The notes beneath the pieces are model-generated. The model saw only the letters and a program-made list of their open reading frames with translations, ran no database searches and was not told the origin of the DNA. A DNA stretch of 62,586 nucleotides, filler included, from Malassezia furfur (Eukaryota), in the NCBI GenBank assembly GCA_052055015.1. It is 11 parts of 11 records of this genome, joined end to end, with 100 filler letters (N's around TTAATTAATTAA, not from the genome) between each part and the next. Parts side by side here need not be neighbours in the genome. Positions count along the whole stretch, not along the records: positions 28,746 to 34,354 come from JBQJIT010000588.1; 10 more parts are not named here. The stretch is one strand, 5' to 3'. Made by a program: the position numbers and the translations under genes. Numbering within the stretch: the stretch's first letter is position 1; every line of letters begins with the position of its first letter. Shown here piece after piece: positions 19,998-55,021 of this stretch.

Positions 19998-22933
19998 CTA
20001 GGAAGGAGACGCCTCCGGCCACGCCGTGAGCCACGTCGCGGGCACGCCGTACACGATGCACGCGGCCCCGGTCAGGTACGGCAGCTTGCACTGGCTGCGT
20101 GCGTGCGCGACGGCGCGCGCAAGTGGCATCGGGGCCGCGCCGCCGGGCAAGAGCCCCACGGCACGGAGCACGGCCTCACACACGCCGTCGAGCTCCTTGT
20201 CGGTCGCGTCCCAGAGGTTGGCGACAAGCGCAGGACACTGCGCGACCATGTAGCGCAGCGGTGTGCCGTCCGGGTCAAAGGCGCCCGCGTCGCGCAGCAC
20301 GCCGCTCGAGCAGCCCCAGAGCATGGCAGCCGCGCACCGCTGGAGCGCACGCAGCTGCGTCGGCTGCACATACAGCTCGCCGCCCGCGTGCCCAAAGTAC
20401 AAGAAGGTGTCCGCCTTGCCGAGCGCGCGCGCCACCTCGTCGACGACCGGGGCGTGGCCGATGGTGCCATGCCACCCCGGCTGCGCACGGAGGAGCGGCG
20501 CAAAGCGTGCCTCGCTGCGCGTCAAGTCGCCGCCGGGGTTGAGCAGGTACGCGGTGCTGCGCGGATCGAGCGTCGCGAGCGGCTCCGGCGCGTCGTGGGG
20601 GTCGTGTGCGGCGCCAATAAACTCCAGCGCCGGCACGCGGCTCACTGAGCGCGCACGGAGCACCGGCAGCGACTCCCACGGCAGGTCACACACCTCGCGG
20701 TCGAGCACGAGGAAGAGGTGCGTGTCGTCGCTGGGCGGCACGCCGTCGTGTGCGCGGCGCACACGCGCATGGTGCTCGTCGAGTGCACTGCGCAGGTCCA
20801 CACACAGCTCGTCCATATCCACCTCGTCCTGTGCGATCGGCACGCCGGAGAGCTGGCATGCGTCCATCACAAAGTGCGCCCAGTCTTCCAGGACCTCGAT
20901 CGTGCAGTCGCTCGGGAGCGCCGCGAGGCACACGAGCGCCGCATCGCTCACGGTGATCGCGTCCCCGTGCGCCGTGTGCCCTGCACACGCATGCGTCAGT
21001 GCGCGCGTTGCCTGCGTGCGCAGGGGTGCAAGGTGCGTCGGCGGCGGCGCCAGCAGCCCCTGGAACGCGCCCAGCCACGTCGCCTGCACGCTGTCGAGCA
21101 GGGTGCAGAGCGCCGCATCGAGCTCGCGGCGCTGCGTCCACCACGCCTTGCGCGCCTCGAGCGCGTGCACGTCCTTCGCCGTGTGCACGCTGGCGTTGGA
21201 CGCCGCAAGGATCGTGCGCAGTTCGTCGAGCACCGCATCGGGCGTGTACGTCTCGTCGTCGCCCTCGCGCCGGCTTTGGCGGTCGATGGGCAGGGTATAC
21301 ACGGCGCACGCCGCGGACGTGACGTGTGCCAGGTGCAGCTCGCGCCGGTCGTCCGACAGCGACACGACGACGGCGGCCGTCTGGTCCGGCAGCGCCCAAT
21401 GCACGTCGCGGCCGAGCGACGCATCGCTCGCGACGCTCGCGTGCACGCGCGTCGAGGGCGGCAGCGGCGGCGGCGGCACGCGCGGCGCGCCGTCGCTCGA
21501 CACGGGGTGCGCACGGCGCAGGGCTACGTCGACAAACGCGCGGCGCACACTGACGGACGCCGCGGCGTTGAGCAGCGCCGCGGCGCGGCGTGAGCGCTCC
21601 GCCTGCTGCTCGGGGCGCACGACCGCCTGCAGCAGGCACGCGGCGTACGCCGTACGCAGCGCACGCCGCACGACCCGCACGTCGCCGACCGCGGCCGTGC
21701 GCTGCAATGCGATGCTTAGTGCCCGCTCTGCATCGTCGAGCAGCGGCGCAACGCGGCGTACGAGCGTGGCTTGCGCGCGCGACGCGGGGCGTGGCGCGGC
21801 GCCTGGCAGCGCCCGCGCGGCTTCGGGCAGCATCGACCACACGGCGTCGGTGTGCAACAAACGCTCGGCATCGGCGACGAGCGCTGCCGCACGCTGCACA
21901 AGCGCTTCGGGACTGTCCGTCGGCGGCGCCGTGTCGCGCAGGTGCAGCGCCGCGCGCACCGCCTGCCGTGCGGAACGCGCCGCGTCGTGTGCCGCCGCGT
22001 CCTCCGAGTCGGCCGCCTCGAGCTCCGCTACATGTGCGCGAGCGAGGCTCGGCGTACCGCCGAGCAAGGAGCGCGCCATGTCGAGCGAGGCTTGCGCCGC
22101 ATCGTGCTCGCCAAGCGCCGTCTGCAGCTCGGCGTGCGCTTCATGGGCCGCCGCACGCGGGAGCGGCGGCGGCTGTGCGTCGGCGAACGCGACGGCCTCG
22201 TGCGCAAACGCCGCGGCGTCGCGCGTCGCGCCGCGCGCCGCGTACAGCGCCGCGAGCGCGCCATACGTATGTACGAGCGCCGCCGACACGCGCCAGTGCC
22301 ACGCACGCAGGGCCAGCAGCGCATGCCGTGACGCACTGGGTGTGGACGGCGTGCGTGCTCCAAAGACGTCCGCGTCGCCGCCCGCGTGTCCGAGGAGCAG
22401 CGACGTGCGCAAGTGCAGGCGCAGCGCATGCAGCGTCGCGCTCACCGCATCGGCATACACGCTATAGTGATCGCGCGCGAGCGACGCCGCTGCGTGAGCG
22501 GCACTCGCGCGCAGTGCATACGCCGCGCACTTGGCCGCCACGCGGTTCGTCGACGAGGCGGGCGCGGGTGTGTCGGCGGCCGCGGGCGCCGCAGCGTCCG
22601 CGTACGTTTGCGCAGCATCCGCGTCGCCGCGCGCGCTCTGTGCATGCGCAAGGGTATACAGCACAGCGGGTGTGCGCGGCGACGCATGCAGCACATGGAT
22701 CGCCGCTTCCGGGGCACCGACACGGATCCAGAGCTCGGCGAGGCGCACACTTGCACATGCCACGAGGTCCGCTGAGCTCGCCGCCTGTGCGAGGCGCACG
22801 AGGGCGCCGAGCGCGTCGGCCGCTGCAGCATCGAGGCCGGCGTACAGCAGGGCATCGCACGTGGCGCTCAGCATGTGCGCGAGTGCGTGCGTCGCAGAGG
22901 CGGCGCCAGACGGCGCAGCGGCCGGCGCGGCGG
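19998..22933 (-). CDS. ESP1: Separase (peptidase C50), 5' truncated
   Basis: 'LPWESLPVLR..VSRVP', 'YLLNPGGDL', catalytic 'YFGHAGG' and 'LWGCSSG', 'VANLWDATDKELD'. Confidence 0.93.
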
Positions 22934-28347: not shown

Positions 28348-28745
28348 GTGTGGGGAAGGCCGGCGCTCGCGAACAGAGTCTCCCAAGCGATAGCACGGCC
28401 GGCCCCCCGGTTGCCACCCACCCAGCAGCTAGGTCACGTGGCCTGTCCGATCGGCGGGCTCCGCGCGCGATCGCAGCCAGGGCACGCACGCGCTTTGCAC
28501 CCATGCGCGAGCCGCCGCCGCGTGACGCGCCCATGGGGCGCCCGGGGGGCGAGGAGCCCGAGCATCGGCCACGCGCGTACGGCGCACGCATGCGCGATGA
28601 TCGCATGCGCGCGGGCGGCGCGGCGCCGCGCACGCCCTGCGCGTGNNNNNNNNNNNNNNNNNNNNNNNNNNNNNNNNNNNNNNNNNNNNTTAATTAATTA
28701 ANNNNNNNNNNNNNNNNNNNNNNNNNNNNNNNNNNNNNNNNNNNN

Positions 28746-29994
28746 CATGGTCCACGTCGAGGAACAGGTCGAGCGCGTGGATCAGCGTGCTCTGCCCGGC
28801 ACTCGGGCCGGTCCACAGCGAGGGCTCCGTCGCGGCGCCCTCGAGGACCCAGCCGGGCGCACGGCCCGCGGGCGTCGAAGTATACATCGCGTCGCCCGTC
28901 TTGAACCACGGGCGGATCTGCCAGTAAAAGGTGGTGGGGTCGCATCCGTCGCGCATCTGGCGCAGCAGCGCCGTCAGCTTGCGGATGACCTCGGCGAGCT
29001 CCTCGAGGTAGCACGCAATGCGCTTCTCGGCGAGCTCGTCGACAGCGAATGCCTCGTTGAGCGACACGCGCATCAGCGTGAGCGCCTCGACACCTTGCAG
29101 CTCAATGAGCAGCGAAATGTAGTAAAAGTGCGCCTCGGACGGCGTGTTGGTAAACGTCTCTTGGATGCGCATGTTGCTCGGCACCATGCCGCGCGCAGGG
29201 TCGATCAGCGTCCAGTTCCACAGCACCGTCGTAGCGTACGTCAGCACGGGCGGCAGGCCCAGCCGGTCGCTCACCGCGACAAACGGCACGGCCAGCGACG
29301 CAGGCAGGCGGCCAATGTAGGCGGCCTCGTCGTTCGCCACCCGCCGCGCCGCGCCCCACCGCGCAAACCACCCGGTGGGCGGCTGCGCGGCGCTCGCTAC
29401 GGCCGCGGCCTTGTCGGCATCGGCCTCGTACTGGCCCACGTCGGGCTGCGCATGCATGTAAAAGTGCGTCAAAAACGCCAGGACCACACACGCTCGGCGC
29501 GCGGTCCGAATGTCGTCCAGCTGCTGTGCCGTAAGCGAGATCAGCGGCATCGCCCGGATCGCTTCGCGCCATCGGCGCGCCTCTTCACGCTGCGCCAGCG
29601 ATTCGTACCGATCGCCAATCTCGAGGGGGATGGACTTGGCCCAGTCCAGCATACCCTCCCACAGCGAGGGGGTCGCAGTGTCGTACGACGTGTGCTGCAC
29701 GTCGTAGGCAGGGCCCGCAAGGCGCTCCAGCGGAGGCTCGGGCGGTAGAAAGCCCGAACGCACATCCACGTCAAAGTCGGCCGCAGCCAAGGTCGAAGTA
29801 TCCGGGCGGCTGTCGGCAGGCCGCGGCGTCGAAGCCGCCTTGGGCATCCGGCGACTCAGGCCCGCCAGGATGTCGCGGGCGCTCCCTGCCGGCGCTGCCG
29901 GCGAACCATGCAGACTACTGCATTCTGCGTGTGCATTCGTGCACTCCCGCTCGGGCTCCCGCGCCAGAAAGTGGCCTGGCTGGATCGCCGACAT
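28746..29994 (-). CDS. BNA2: Indoleamine 2,3-dioxygenase (3' truncated; start 29994 or 29847)
   Basis: 'FDVDVRSGFLPPEPPLERL', 'LGLPPVLTYATTVLWNW', 'FYWQIRPW', 'GPSAGQSTLIHALDLFL'. Confidence 0.9.
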
Positions 29995-30090
29995 CGCCGT
30001 GGTGAGAACACAACCGGCTCCACAAAATTCTCGGCACAGTTTTATCGGGCCACCGCCTCCCGAGGTCCAGACATGAAAAAAGGTGCCCCA

Positions 30091-30570
30091 AAGACAAAAA
30101 TGAAATACTAATATGAAATACTATTACAAATGCATATCTATTTTAAATACAGAAACACTATTAAACGAAAACAAAACACTTTTATCTTAAAGATATTATA
30201 AAATAAAAGAAATTATATTGTAATAGAACTACGGTAAATAATAGATACATATAGATATTTATATTAAATATATTTAATCTATTACTAACTATAAAAACTA
30301 ATAAATACGATAAATCTAAATTATAATAAACAATTGTATGTTAAAGTTTAAATATTATGTTTATCTCTCAAAGTTTATATTTGATGGTTTGATAAATGAT
30401 TATTATAATGATATGGAGTAAAATATAAAATATATAAAATATAAATGTGTATTTTATTTTATATTAATAGTTTAAACCTTTTAACGCAGATATTTCATCG
30501 ATCGTTTACACTATTTATGATTTATAATAGTTGAACTATACTTTACTATATTTAAAAAGACTAATTATCT
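30091..30570. other. AT-rich island, putative centromere core
   Basis: Hand count of 81 G+C in 480 nt (about 17% GC) in a ~65-70% GC window; no ORF; sharp borders; matches the published description of Malassezia centromere cores as short GC troughs. Confidence 0.8.
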
Positions 30571-30649
30571 TTGTTCAGATTGGGTCTTCTGCGCCTCCTG
30601 TGGGGTAGGGAAACCGATTACGTCAAGTGGAACTTGGGCTTGCATTAGC

Positions 30650-32024
30650 ATGTGTCGACTCCTGGGTACGTGCCTGTCATGGTAACCTCGGCGACAGAGC
30701 TAACCTCGCACAGTGTTCAAAGGCACAGAGCCTATTCTCCTCTCTCATTTGCTCACACGCCCGGCGCACAGTATCATCAACCAGGTACGTTGGGCGGTCG
30801 ACCCTGCCTCCCTCCTGATACTGACACGGTATGCCAGGCGTTCGACTCACGTCTTCGCATCGACATGAACCGGCCCATCAATGTAGGTCCGGAGCAATAT
30901 GGATGGTGGCTGACACTGCTAGGGTGATGGTTTCGGTGTCGGCTGGTATGACTCGACGTGGGACTCGGAGCTCGGCGAGGCACCGTGCATCTTCACCAGT
31001 GTGACGCCCGTACGTACCCAAGGGGGGAACAGCCAGAGACTAACCTCAGGCGTGGAATAACGTCAACCTGCATCGTATTGCGGAAAAGATCAAGAGTCCC
31101 CTGGTCTTGTGCGTGTGCCCCCCTCGGAACGCTAACGGACAGTGGTCATGTACGGGCCTCGACGGCAGGGGCGCTGAGCGAGACCAACTGCCACCCCTGG
31201 CGCTATGGCCGGCTGATGTGGTGCGTACGCGTGTGCTTACCGCAGGATGCACAATGGCCAGATTTCGCAGTTTTCCAAGATCAAGCGGCGTCTGCTGGCG
31301 GCGCTGCCCGAGCCGCTGTTCCTGTGGCCCCAGGGACACACGGATTCCGAGTTTGCCTTTGCGCTGTTCCTAAGCCACCTGGGCAACCCCGAGAGCATGG
31401 ACGAGTTTAGCTACCTCGAGCTCAAAGATGCGATGCTCAAGACCATCCAAAACCTCAACCAGTGGTCGCAGGAGGCCAACATCCAGGAGCCGAGCCTGAT
31501 GAACTTTTGCGTGACGGACGGCAAGAGCATTGTCTGCACGCGCTACGTGTCGAGCAAGGTGGACGAGGCCGCGAGCCTGGTATGTGGGCGGTTGCTGACG
31601 CCAGTACTTTTCGACGGGCACGTCGTTCTACGAACACTCGGAGGGGGCCTACCGCATGGTCAAGGCCGACCGGCGGCAGAAGATTGTGGTGGTGGCGAGC
31701 GAGCCCCTCACGTTTGAAAAAGGTGCGTATGGCACACACTGATGCGCAGCGGACTGGATGGAGATTGAGTCCAATACGATCCTGTGCGTTACGCCCAACA
31801 TGAATGTGCTGCAATACCCCATCATCGACGAATACCACACCCCGCGCACGAATGCGCCTGCGCGCAACCCCGACTTTGCGATGCGCGCTGGCTTCCATTC
31901 GAACGCGCACATTCCCCCCGAGCTTCGGGAGGAGCTTCCGACCGACTCAGCGTCGCTCCAGTGCGATGCAGCGTATGCGTCCGACTTTCCGCTAGAGACG
32001 TGCGCGCGCCCCGTAGCTACATAG
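30650..32024 (+). CDS. DUG3: Class II (Ntn) glutamine amidotransferase Dug3; 9 exons, introns 30666-30713, 30785-30837, 30883-30922, 31010-31049, 31109-31142, 31221-31245, 31580-31604 and 31723-31749
   Basis: The spliced product reads 'MCRLLVFKGTEPILLSHLLTRPAHSIINQAFDSRLR..PINGDGFGVGWY..TPAWNN..FGHVRAST..NCHPW..WMHNG..GHTDSE..VASEPLT'; Cys2 nucleophile present. Confidence 0.92.
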
Positions 32025-32091
32025 GCTCTATGTGGAGGAATGCGCAAAAGGGGCCATTTCCCGCCTACGAGCGACGTTGGCGTGAGCGAGG

Positions 32092-32830
32092 ATGCATCCT
32101 GCGCTGTTGATCTTTTTGGTGTCGCTGGTGAACCAGACCATTACGTGGCTGGGCCGCGACAAGCTGCAGGAAGTGGTGCGTATGCGCGGCGAGCTCACGC
32201 AGTGTTACAAGCTGTATGCGCGCGTCGTGAACTACTCGGCGTACCGCAAGCTGAACGCGTCCAAGAAGGAGCTGTTTGCGACGCGGCAGGAGATGAATGC
32301 GACGAGTGCGCAGGACCAGTTCGCAAAGTGGGCGAAGCTGCGGCGAAAGGTGGACAAGCTGACGAGCGAGGTGGAAGCGCAGAGTGCGTACGGGGGTGTG
32401 GGCTGACGCAGACAAGGTGATTTCCTCGGGCCAGTTCTTCTTTTCGCTGCTGTTCAAGGCGCTGATGTTTGTGCTGAACATGGCGATCCCGTGGATGCTG
32501 TCGTCCTACTTCAGCAAGACGCCCATGTTCTACCTGCCGCCCGGCGACTGGTTCGGCCCGCTCGGGTACGTGTTCTCGTTTCCCAAGGCGCCCGTCGGTG
32601 CGGTGAGCACGACGGTGTGGACGATGGTGTGCGGGCGTGTGCTGTCGCTGGTGGGCGCGTACTGCCGCGAGGTGTTTGTGTCCGACCCCGTGCTGGATGC
32701 GCCGGTGGCCGAGGCGCCGGTGGCCGAGAAGCCGGTGGCCGAGGCGCCGGTGGCCGCCGCGGGCGCGGACGAGAAGGGCGGCGCGGCGGATGCGGCGCGC
32801 ACGCTGCGGGCGCGCAAGGCGGCGACGTAG
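32092..32830 (+). CDS. GET1: GET pathway ER insertase Get1/WRB; introns 32176-32202 and 32384-32411
   Basis: N-terminal TM segment, 'TSAQDQFAKWAKLRRKVDK' coiled coil, 'PMFYLPPGDWFGP..FSFPKAPVGAVS'. Confidence 0.92.
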
Positions 32831-51340: not shown

Positions 51341-51440
51341 NNNNNNNNNNNNNNNNNNNNNNNNNNNNNNNNNNNNNNNNNNNNTTAATTAATTAANNNN
51401 NNNNNNNNNNNNNNNNNNNNNNNNNNNNNNNNNNNNNNNN

Positions 51441-54400
51441 GAGTCGACGATGAGCTTGTTCATCTGCGGCACCTGCATCGGCGACTTCCACAGCTGCGTG
51501 CTCGGCGACGATGCGACCAACCCGGCGGGTGGCACCGCCGGCAGGCGGCGCTGCATCGCTGCCACCGCGCGCGGGTCCTCGCATGCGTCGGGCGGGAGGC
51601 CAAACAGCGCCTGCTCCATGCCCACGTCGTGCACCAGGCGCTCCTCGTGCTCGACAAACGGCCGGTAGTTGGCGTGCAGCCGGATGCGCGGCGCCACGGC
51701 CGCAGGGATCGCAGCGCGCAGCGTGCTGTCGCCGAGCCGCTCGTTCAAACAGTGCTCCGCGATGCACCCAAGCGGCACGAGGTCGGGCGTCGGCCGCTCC
51801 GTCGCGTACGGCACGTGCCGGCGCACGGCCCCCCGCGGCCGGTGCGCGCTGGCGGCAAGCTCGTCGTCGAACACGTAGCGCTCATCGGCGCGGCGCGCGC
51901 GGTCGTGTGCCGCGACGTGCAGGAGCTGCTGGAGTGCGTCGCCGTGGAACGCGCGCTCGGCGTCGACGGGCGTCATGTTGAGCAGCGGGAGGAAGGCAAA
52001 CGCATTGTCGCGCTCCTTGCTCGCCGCGACGAGGTGCGGCGTGCGCCAGATGTTGAGCAGCGAGTCGAGGTAGTGCGAGTCGAATCCGGCACGGTTCGAC
52101 GCGCTCGGGACACGCACAAGCCCCTCCTGCACGAGGCGCTGCGGGACATGCACGTCGAGCAACGAGCGCGACGAGTCGGGGCACCACGACATGTCGCCCT
52201 CGCGCAGGAACGACGGGGTGTTAGCGAATGTGCCGCACACGAACGGCGCGCGCACGTCGGCGCGCTCGAACAGCTCCGGGTGGTTGCACACCTTGCGGAA
52301 CTGCATGACCAGATTCATGAGGCTCTTCAGGCCCGACTCGTCGTTCGTGCTGGTCGCCTTGTCGACGAGCTCGGCGACGGACACGTGCGAGCGCAGGTTC
52401 TTGTACAAGAGCTTTTGGCGCGCGCTCATGTCGCAGTACAAGTCGATCTCGATCTTGTCGCCCAGCTCGTTCTGCACATTCTTCTTGATGCGGCGCAGCA
52501 TGAACGGCTTGAGGATCATGTGCAAGCGGCGCAGCTGGTGCTCGTTGAGCGTGCCCTTGTTCTCGGCGTGGTTCTCAATGTCCTTGGAGAACCACTCGCT
52601 GAACTCGTCGTGCGAGTCGAACAGGCTCGGCATGATAAAGTGGAGCAGCGCCCAGAGCTCCTGCATCGAGTTTTGCACGGGCGTGCCGGTGAGCAGCAGC
52701 CGGTTGCGGCAGTTGAACCCGAGCAGCGTCTTCCACCGGTTGCTCGACGACGACTTGATCGCCTGCGCCTCGTCCAGCACCATGTACTGCCACTTGAGCC
52801 GCTGGAAGTACTTCTCGTCCGACACCACCAGCTGGTAGCTCGTGACGAGCACGTGGAAGGGCGCATTGCGGTCGTACGAGATTTGCTTGCGGTTCCAAAA
52901 CTTGCGCAGCACGGCACGGTCCTTGACGTTGCCCCAGTACGGCAACGCCTTGAGCGCCGGCACGAACTTGGTGATCTCCTGCTGCCAGTTGTGCAGCGTC
53001 GAGGCGGGCGCAATCACCAAGAACGGGCCCCAGATGTCGTGCACCTCGGCAAGGTAGGCCATCAGCGCGATGCTCTGCACCGTCTTGCCGAGACCCATCT
53101 CGTCCGCGAGGATGCCGTTGATGCCCTGCTCGTACAGGTTCGCGAGCCAGCTCAGCCCCTTGATCTGGTACGGCTTCAGCGTACACGTGAGCATCTTGGG
53201 CTGCCGCACCTCGGTGACACCCATCGACGAGGGGTTGAGGAAGTTGAGGTCGTCCGAGTCGAACGTTTGCGTGGGGTCCTTGGCGCGCTGCGCCTCCTCC
53301 GCCTTGCGCCGCTCGTCGGCGACGGCCGCGTCGAAGGCCTGCGCCTTGTCGCGCGCCGCACGCACCGCCTCGTTCGCGTTGCGCGCCGCATGCGCCCGCA
53401 TGTTCGACTCGTCCTCGTCGTCAAAGTCGATCTCGTGGAGCGCCTCGTTCCCGTTCACCTCGGGCGCGTCGACCTGCATCGGCGCAGCGCTCGGCGCAGC
53501 GCTCGCCGTGTCCTCCGACTCCTCGGCCTCAGACGTCTTGAGCTTGTTGCCCACAAAGTGGCTGTACAGCTCCGTCTGCGTGATAAGGAAGTTGAGCTTG
53601 CGCGCCTGGCGCTTCGCCTCGCGCATCTCCTCCTCCTTCTTGGCCTTCTCGAGCGCCTCTTTCTCGGCCTTTTTGCGCAGATCGCGCTCCTCGCGCTCGT
53701 TGCGCTTCCAGTAGAGCAACAGCTCACGCATCACCTTGCGCGAGCGCAGCTGGATATCCTTGCTCGACTTGTTGTTGCGCGCCGCGCCGCGCTTCGCCTC
53801 GCGCTGCACCACACTCGACAGACGCCGCCAGTACATGGCTTTGTTGGTGTAGCTCGCCATCACCGTGCGGTACACCTTGGGGATGTCGCGCTTGGCGATC
53901 AGCGCCCAGACGCGCTGGTGCGCCTCGTTCAGCAGCGCCTCACGCCGCTCGCCGATAGGGATCGTGCCGCGCACCTCGCCCGTTTCGGGGTCGATCAGCT
54001 GCGGCGGCGGCTTCAGCTCCGTCTCCTCGTCGCTCGCAACCGACACGGAGCGGTTCGTGTCGCTTGCCGCACCGCCGATCTCGGCCTCGAGCGCGTCCAC
54101 GTCCGGCGCAGGCGACGACGCCTCGTGCCGGCGCGGGCGGTCCGCCAGCGTATCGAGCAGCTCGAGATCGATATCGTCCTCGTCGTCGCGCCGCGCGCCG
54201 CTGCTGCTCCGCTTCGGCGCACGCGACGGCGGGCGCTTCTGGCGCGCGTGGTATTGCGTCTCGTACGTGTGGCACAGGCGGCACATCGTCTGCCGCCGCT
54301 GCTCGGCACCCAGCGCATCCCAGGCGGCCTCAACACGCTTCTGGTGCGCCAGGCGCTCACTCATGTACGCGGCCAGCGGTGCGGGCCACACCTGCGCGTT

Positions 54401-55021
54401 CTCGTCGGCAGACAGGTCGCTGTCCCACACGGGCTCGTCGGCCAACGCGACGTCGGCACTCGGCGTGCGCGCCATGGTCGCGCTCGGCGGCATGCCCCGC
54501 GGCACGCCGTGCGCCACGCCGTTCGGCATACGCGGCAGCACACTGGCGGACGACAGCGGCGTACGCGGCGCGCGCGGCAGCGGCGGCGGCACGTAGGTAG
54601 GTGCATCCGTCGTGGTAAAGAGGGGCTCGTCGGCCGGCGAGGAGCGCTGGGCTGCCCACGCTTCGGCGGGTGACAGCATCGGGGCGTCGCGCGCCTCCGC
54701 GCCGGGACTCGCCGAGCTGTGCTGGTTGAGTATGCTCGAGATCGACATGGCAGGCTGCGACCGGTTGCGCCAGGCAGCGTGTTCAGCGTTGTAGTCGTCA
54801 CTCGAGGGCGCTTCGTGCACACGGGCCTCGGCGGCCGCCGGCGGGGGGTATGAGGTATCGTGCGCCGGATCGGCAGGCCGGGGCACCGCGGGTTTGGTAT
54901 ACGCCGCAGGGGGCATCGGTGTGGGCGTGGGAAGCGGCTCGCGGCTCGTATCGACGTCCATCGACTGGTCGTCGGGCCGCGGCGCATCGTGCGCGCCGCT
55001 CGTCGGCAGCGGTGTGGTCAT
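51441..55021 (-). CDS. INO80: Ino80 chromatin-remodelling ATPase (3' truncated)
   Basis: DBINO 'EAKRQARKLNFLITQTELYSHF', SNF2 'GILADEMGLGKT', 'LDEAQAIKSSSS', split-ATPase insertion after 'VCNHPELFER'. Confidence 0.96.

Follow-up and report, generated by a model that had tools for sequence, protein, structure and literature searches.

The AT-rich island at positions 30091-30570 of the window (the whole 62,586-base stretch of DNA that was analysed) is very probably the core of a short regional centromere, either Malassezia furfur CEN3 (MfCEN3) itself or a direct CEN3 orthologue within the M. furfur complex. The initial annotation had proposed a Malassezia short regional centromere core at this place. 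The proposal was supported by exact matches to both primers published for MfCEN3 and by the CENP-A enrichment published for the same locus (Sankaranarayanan et al. 2020, eLife 9:e53944, PMC7025860). As both MfCEN3 primers were identical to the window, the island is best assigned to MfCEN3 and its source to M. furfur or to one of its nearest relatives. The same annotation had considered the centromere to be probably unannotated; this part did not stand, as the locus is listed as MfCEN3 in Table 2 of PMC7025860. The locus is already known, having been published and ChIP-validated in 2020, and PMC7025860 was the only report found in the literature searched, from 2020 onward, on the M. furfur centromere and CENP-A.

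Malassezia centromeres are described as kinetochore-bound regions of 3-5 kb around an AT-rich intergenic core of less than 1 kb, which lies at the chromosomal GC minimum; they lack repeat structure and show enrichment of a 12-bp AT-rich motif (PMC7025860). The abrupt island of 480 nt with 81 G+C that had been noted from the sequence was borne out by a recount and by sliding GC windows. The island contained 217 A, 182 T, 40 G and 41 C (81/480 nt, 16.9% G+C), and the mean of the window was 68.6% GC. Nowhere else in the 62.6-kb window did the GC content drop below 40%. In particular, the 100-bp windows (step 10) below 40% GC, 50 in number, all belonged to one block with starts from 30041 to 30531. 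Away from the island and its borders, the minimum over 200-bp windows was 51.5% GC, and all 500-bp bins outside 30001-31000 had at least 55.6% GC. Both borders were sharp, with the change taking place within approximately 30 bp on each side: the GC fraction over 30 bp fell from 0.53-0.67 to 0.17 between 30061 and 30091 at the left border and rose from 0.20 to 0.67 between 30551 and 30581 at the right border. We found the island to be an AT-rich core of less than 1 kb in a sharp GC trough, as in the definition of PMC7025860. The coordinates of the island and of the features around it are given in Table 1.

Table 1. Features at and around the AT-rich island, in window coordinates
Feature	Position	Strand	Description
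AT-rich centromere core (GC trough), very probable	30091..30570		480 bp, 16.9% GC
Intergenic region between divergent start codons	29995..30649		655 bp, 27.0% GC
MfCEN3 qPCR amplicon	29998..30075		78 bp; both published primers identical (PMC7025860)
Indoleamine 2,3-dioxygenase (IDO) gene	28690..29994	-	ORF; Pfam PF01231 IDO, E = 6.4e-76
DUG3-like class-II glutamine amidotransferase gene, multi-exon	30650..32024	+	exon pieces in stop-to-stop frames, joins approximate
GET1/CHD5-like gene, at least 2 exons	32092..32830	+	Pfam PF04420 CHD5

The strongest evidence for the identity of the island was obtained from the primer pair that is given for MfCEN3 ChIP-qPCR in supplementary file 1 of PMC7025860. 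Primer MF3 R1 was identical over its full length to window positions 29998-30014 on the plus strand, and primer MF3 F1 was identical over its full length to the reverse complement of 30060-30075, on the minus strand. The two primers (16 and 17 nt, 33 nt without a mismatch) were convergent beside the trough and spanned 78 bp, and the resulting amplicon abutted the left edge of the island. The numbers of matches expected by chance in the window were approximately 3e-5 and 7e-6 for a 16-mer and a 17-mer, respectively. The comparison was made by eye and covered the MfCEN3 pair alone. We also observed that the amplicon lies outside the AT core, within the 5' region of IDO, where the GC content is normal.

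In PMC7025860, all seven predicted M. furfur centromeres were found to be enriched in CENP-A. The source data of that report contain nine measurements of CENP-A-3xFLAG ChIP-qPCR at CEN3, which ranged from 0.76 to 1.32% of input, with a control at 0.035-0.087%. From these data, we computed a CEN3 mean of 0.98% of input versus 0.052% for the control, which corresponds to a ratio of 18.7 (approximately 19-fold). By our own averaging of the same source data, the CENP-A signal of CEN3 was the second-lowest of the seven centromeres, and the position of the amplicon on the GC-normal border may explain this low rank. The CENP-A occupancy of the island in the present sequence would be as reported for this CEN3 amplicon in PMC7025860, from which it is taken.

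The size and composition of the island were compared with the published values. Table 2 of PMC7025860 places MfCEN3 at Chr3 717,557-718,084 (528 bp, 22.9% GC) and gives M. furfur cores of 168-721 bp with 15.4-27% GC in a genome of 64.9% GC; the size and GC content of the island lie within this range. The 528-bp windows with starts at 30005-30014 had 22.92% GC and thus equalled the published 528 bp at 22.9%, which is consistent with the MfCEN3 identity but short of proof. The closest known system is MfCEN3 of M. furfur strain CBS14141, which shares the primer pair, the AT-rich sub-kilobase intergenic core and the GC-rich genome. This comparison covers the primer sites, size and GC content, and the two were not identical in the last of these, as the lowest-GC 528-bp window in the present sequence reached 19.5%, below the published 22.9%. 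This means either that the coordinates in Table 2 of PMC7025860 are offset from the trough or that the window derives from a different strain or lineage.

The latter case would be that of a window drawn from a different lineage within the M. furfur complex (for example, M. brasiliensis, a hybrid or the second parental lineage), with the island as the MfCEN3 orthologue, predicted by composition and having the same function. Coelho et al. (2023, PNAS, PMC10410736) reported that one parental lineage of M. furfur has its closer affinity with M. brasiliensis rather than with the other M. furfur lineage. They also assigned candidate centromeres for each chromosome by the GC minimum; CEN3 of M. brasiliensis was placed at Chr3 702,769-703,295 (526 bp). 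When the trough rule of that study was applied (250-bp windows below 40% GC), the trough in our window was 500 bp long. The trough of 480-500 bp with its minimum of 19.5%, which yields the published 528 bp at 22.9% only when the window is shifted to the left, is in favour of another lineage. The 500-bp trough, set beside the 526 bp of M. brasiliensis CEN3 and the closeness of the lineages (PMC10410736), suggests that the source is possibly not the ChIP-tested strain. On the other hand, the primers were designed on strain CBS14141, for which an independent long-read assembly was used (PMC7025860), and they matched the window at 33/33 nt; the existence of 528-bp windows with 22.92% GC likewise speaks against a different lineage. 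We consider a source in another lineage to be possible, although on the unlikely side, and the source lineage would leave the identity of the element as a centromere unchanged. No Pfam accession or gene name from our window occurred in the supplement gene table of PMC10410736, which holds differentially expressed genes only. Additionally, among the first 28 of the 48 rows that this table gives for contig CP046236.1, no entry was near 717 kb. Given the restricted content of the table, these two results speak neither for nor against a placement on M. furfur Chr3.

The island fills most of the intergenic gap between two divergent genes, IDO and a DUG3-like gene, both of which are transcribed away from the core. 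The start codon of IDO (CAT at 29992-29994 on the minus strand) is 97 bp from the left edge of the island, and that of the DUG3-like gene (ATG at 30650-30652 on the plus strand) is 80 bp from the right edge. The 3' end of IDO is cut by N runs at 28646-28745. When the IDO protein was compared with metagenome contigs, 57 pattern matches were obtained, none of which was confirmed as a relative. The amidotransferase gene at 30650 begins with Met-Cys, as in N-terminal-nucleophile amidotransferases, and one of its exons showed a weak match to PF13230 GATase_4 (E = 4e-4), which is under the curated cut-off; this gene is putatively DUG3, as named in the initial annotation. The GET1/CHD5-like gene beyond it matched PF04420 in two pieces, with 32092-32406 covering profile positions 2-85 (E = 1.2e-19) and 32384-32830 covering profile positions 85-158 (E = 8.8e-16). 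The remaining window was dense in ordinary housekeeping genes, nuclear and single-copy, among them TIP120, a protein kinase C-like gene, a SEN1-type helicase, adenylate kinase, a REV1-like polymerase, separase, Rad4, CCT, a cullin, biotin ligase, a MADS-box factor, INO80 and an actin-related protein. We found the island to be an intergenic core flanked by ordinary genes, which is a further part of the definition in PMC7025860.

This arrangement raises the question of whether the island could be an AT-rich bidirectional promoter and 5'-UTR region of IDO and DUG3 that has no centromere function. Because the divergent start codons are just 655 bp apart, both transcription start sites must lie in the island or at its edge. 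No other intergenic region of the gene-dense 62.6-kb window, however, was below 51.5% GC over 200 bp, which argues that promoters here are not normally AT islands. The approximately 19-fold CENP-A enrichment at the matching published amplicon (PMC7025860) also speaks against a promoter alone. Moreover, the roles of promoter and core are compatible with each other, as active genes are present in kinetochore-bound regions (PMC7025860). Taken together, a promoter region devoid of centromere function appears very unlikely.

The island was also considered as a mitochondrial insertion (NUMT), a contaminant or an assembly mis-join, for which the extreme and abrupt change in composition is the sole support. 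The description of the island as non-coding held: no tRNA and no match to an Rfam family were found in it, and no ORF of at least 60 aa was present under code 4, which gave only low-complexity stop-to-stop frames of 33-52 aa wholly inside the island. A NUMT or coding relic was rejected on these grounds, namely that no tRNA, Rfam family or open frame was found. Additionally, both junctions of the island run into nuclear genes whose start codons are less than 100 bp away, and the primers from the independent long-read assembly flank the same junction. An origin of this kind is the least credible of the alternatives, and we give it hardly any weight compared with the centromere core.

We then turn to the internal features of the island, which the initial annotation had listed. 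An 11-nt direct repeat at 30100 and 30113, a perfect 16-bp palindrome at 30263-30278 and a TAAAATA-type run at 30419-30445 were all found where the initial annotation had placed them. The chance level of such repeats was estimated from 2000 first-order Markov simulations of the island. A direct repeat of at least 11 nt occurred in 63% of the 2000 simulated islands and a perfect palindrome of at least 16 nt in 12.6% of them; in the island itself, direct repeats reached 12 nt and palindromes 16 nt at most, both within chance. Tandem-repeat (TRF) scores in the island were 31-42 only, and the inverted repeats found in it were low-complexity AT pairs only. When folded as single-strand DNA, the island showed a z-score of +0.73, with 77 of 100 dinucleotide shuffles folding at least as well. 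Repeats, palindrome and secondary structure were consequently rejected as functional elements, being at chance level in the simulations, the TRF analysis and the fold test. Because they are at the chance level for such a composition, neither the repeats nor the palindrome strengthen the assignment as a centromere. The island has no direct or inverted repeat structure in the sense of the PMC7025860 definition, and the centromeres of M. sympodialis are likewise described as having no repeat structure (PMC7025860).

In other Malassezia species, centromeres were mapped by Mtw1 ChIP-seq (CEN1-8 of M. sympodialis) or by H3 depletion (CEN1-9 of M. globosa and of M. slooffiae) (PMC7025860). Malassezia cores map to intergenic GC troughs, with active genes adjoining and inside the kinetochore-bound regions, and the enrichment of the 12-bp motif amounts to 7-13 matches per 500 bp at LLR > 7.5 (PMC7025860). 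The island is similar to these centromeres in having a core of less than 1 kb at a GC trough, in being intergenic and without repeats and in having active genes alongside; in contrast to these shared features, the centromere sequence itself is not conserved across species (PMC7025860). MfCEN3 is partially syntenic with MsyCEN3, MgCEN1 and MslCEN3 (PMC7025860, Table 3).

By analogy with these centromeres, CENP-A would replace canonical histone H3 on the sub-kilobase AT-rich core, where kinetochore binding would peak (PMC7025860). Lower-level binding would then spread a few kb into the active flanking genes, which here would be IDO on the left and DUG3 and GET1 on the right. How far the kinetochore-bound domain would reach in this genome is estimated by analogy with M. 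sympodialis. The recognisable signature of such a centromere would be its AT-richness together with the 12-bp AT-rich motif, rather than a centromere-exclusive sequence or a repeat structure. The centromeres of Candida albicans are not known to coincide with a sharp AT-rich trough. The CTG-clade ascomycetes, to which C. albicans belongs, resemble Malassezia in their small and unique CENP-A-defined centromeres, their RNAi deficiency and their clustered kinetochores (PMC7025860, Discussion). In Malassezia, AT-richness and the 12-bp motif form the centromere signature (PMC7025860).

The authors of PMC7025860 proposed that karyotype change is driven by the AT-rich cores, which they regard as fragile, and that the inactivation of a centromere is accompanied by the loss of its AT-richness. 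Chromosome 3 of M. furfur is a fusion product, and two ancestral centromeres that have become inactive, corresponding to CEN8 and CEN9 of M. slooffiae, lie in its arms (PMC7025860). The presence of these two sites on the same chromosome lends some ground to the idea that the island is the relic of an inactivated centromere. The inactivated sites have lost their AT-richness (PMC7025860), whereas the island has retained a GC content as low as 16.9%; it also bears the primer sites of CEN3, which is active and CENP-A-positive. A relic is very improbable, and an active CEN3 core remains our assignment.

Since the locus was published and ChIP-validated in 2020, it adds no new biology. The fact that the centromere was recognised from the raw sequence alone indicates that the composition trough is a reliable signature in Malassezia, and the remaining use of the locus is as a positive control for composition scans. 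A further, small use may lie in testing whether the composition of the flanks follows how far the kinetochore extends.

With regard to this point, the composition of the two flanks was found to be asymmetric. Over the 2 kb that adjoin the core on the right (30571-32570), with the DUG3-like gene and the start of GET1, the GC content was 59.5%, lower than in any of the 117 other 2-kb windows (mean 69.2%, sd 3.1). On the left, the adjoining 2 kb, with IDO, had an average value of 68.7% GC. The low-GC shoulder on the right could be the compositional footprint of an asymmetric pericentric domain. If AT-drift follows CENP-A or kinetochore chromatin, or a local suppression of GC-biased gene conversion, the bound domain would extend mainly to the right. 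We put forward, as a speculative and rather doubtful idea, that the flank composition records an asymmetric, mainly rightward kinetochore domain, and that the core is at the same time the shared promoter of two active divergent genes. If true, flank composition could predict kinetochore extent at unmapped Malassezia centromeres.

Several minor observations were made in the remainder of the window. The assembly had been called fragmented, a description that the window did not support; the N runs, being regular in length and spacing, look like masking rather than assembly gaps. In total, 20 N runs were present between 5694 and 57069, each of exactly 44 N; they form 10 pairs, with 12 nt within a pair and approximately 5.6-5.7 kb between pairs, and some of them cut genes, as at the 3' end of IDO. 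Two genes with roles in chromosome segregation or chromatin were also observed. The separase gene (window 19998-22874, minus strand; Peptidase_C50, E = 2.8e-106) lies approximately 7-10 kb to the left of the core, and an INO80-type remodeller gene (window 51389-55021, minus strand; SNF2 and DBINO domains) lies approximately 21-24 kb to the right. The closeness of these two genes to the centromere is probably a coincidence.
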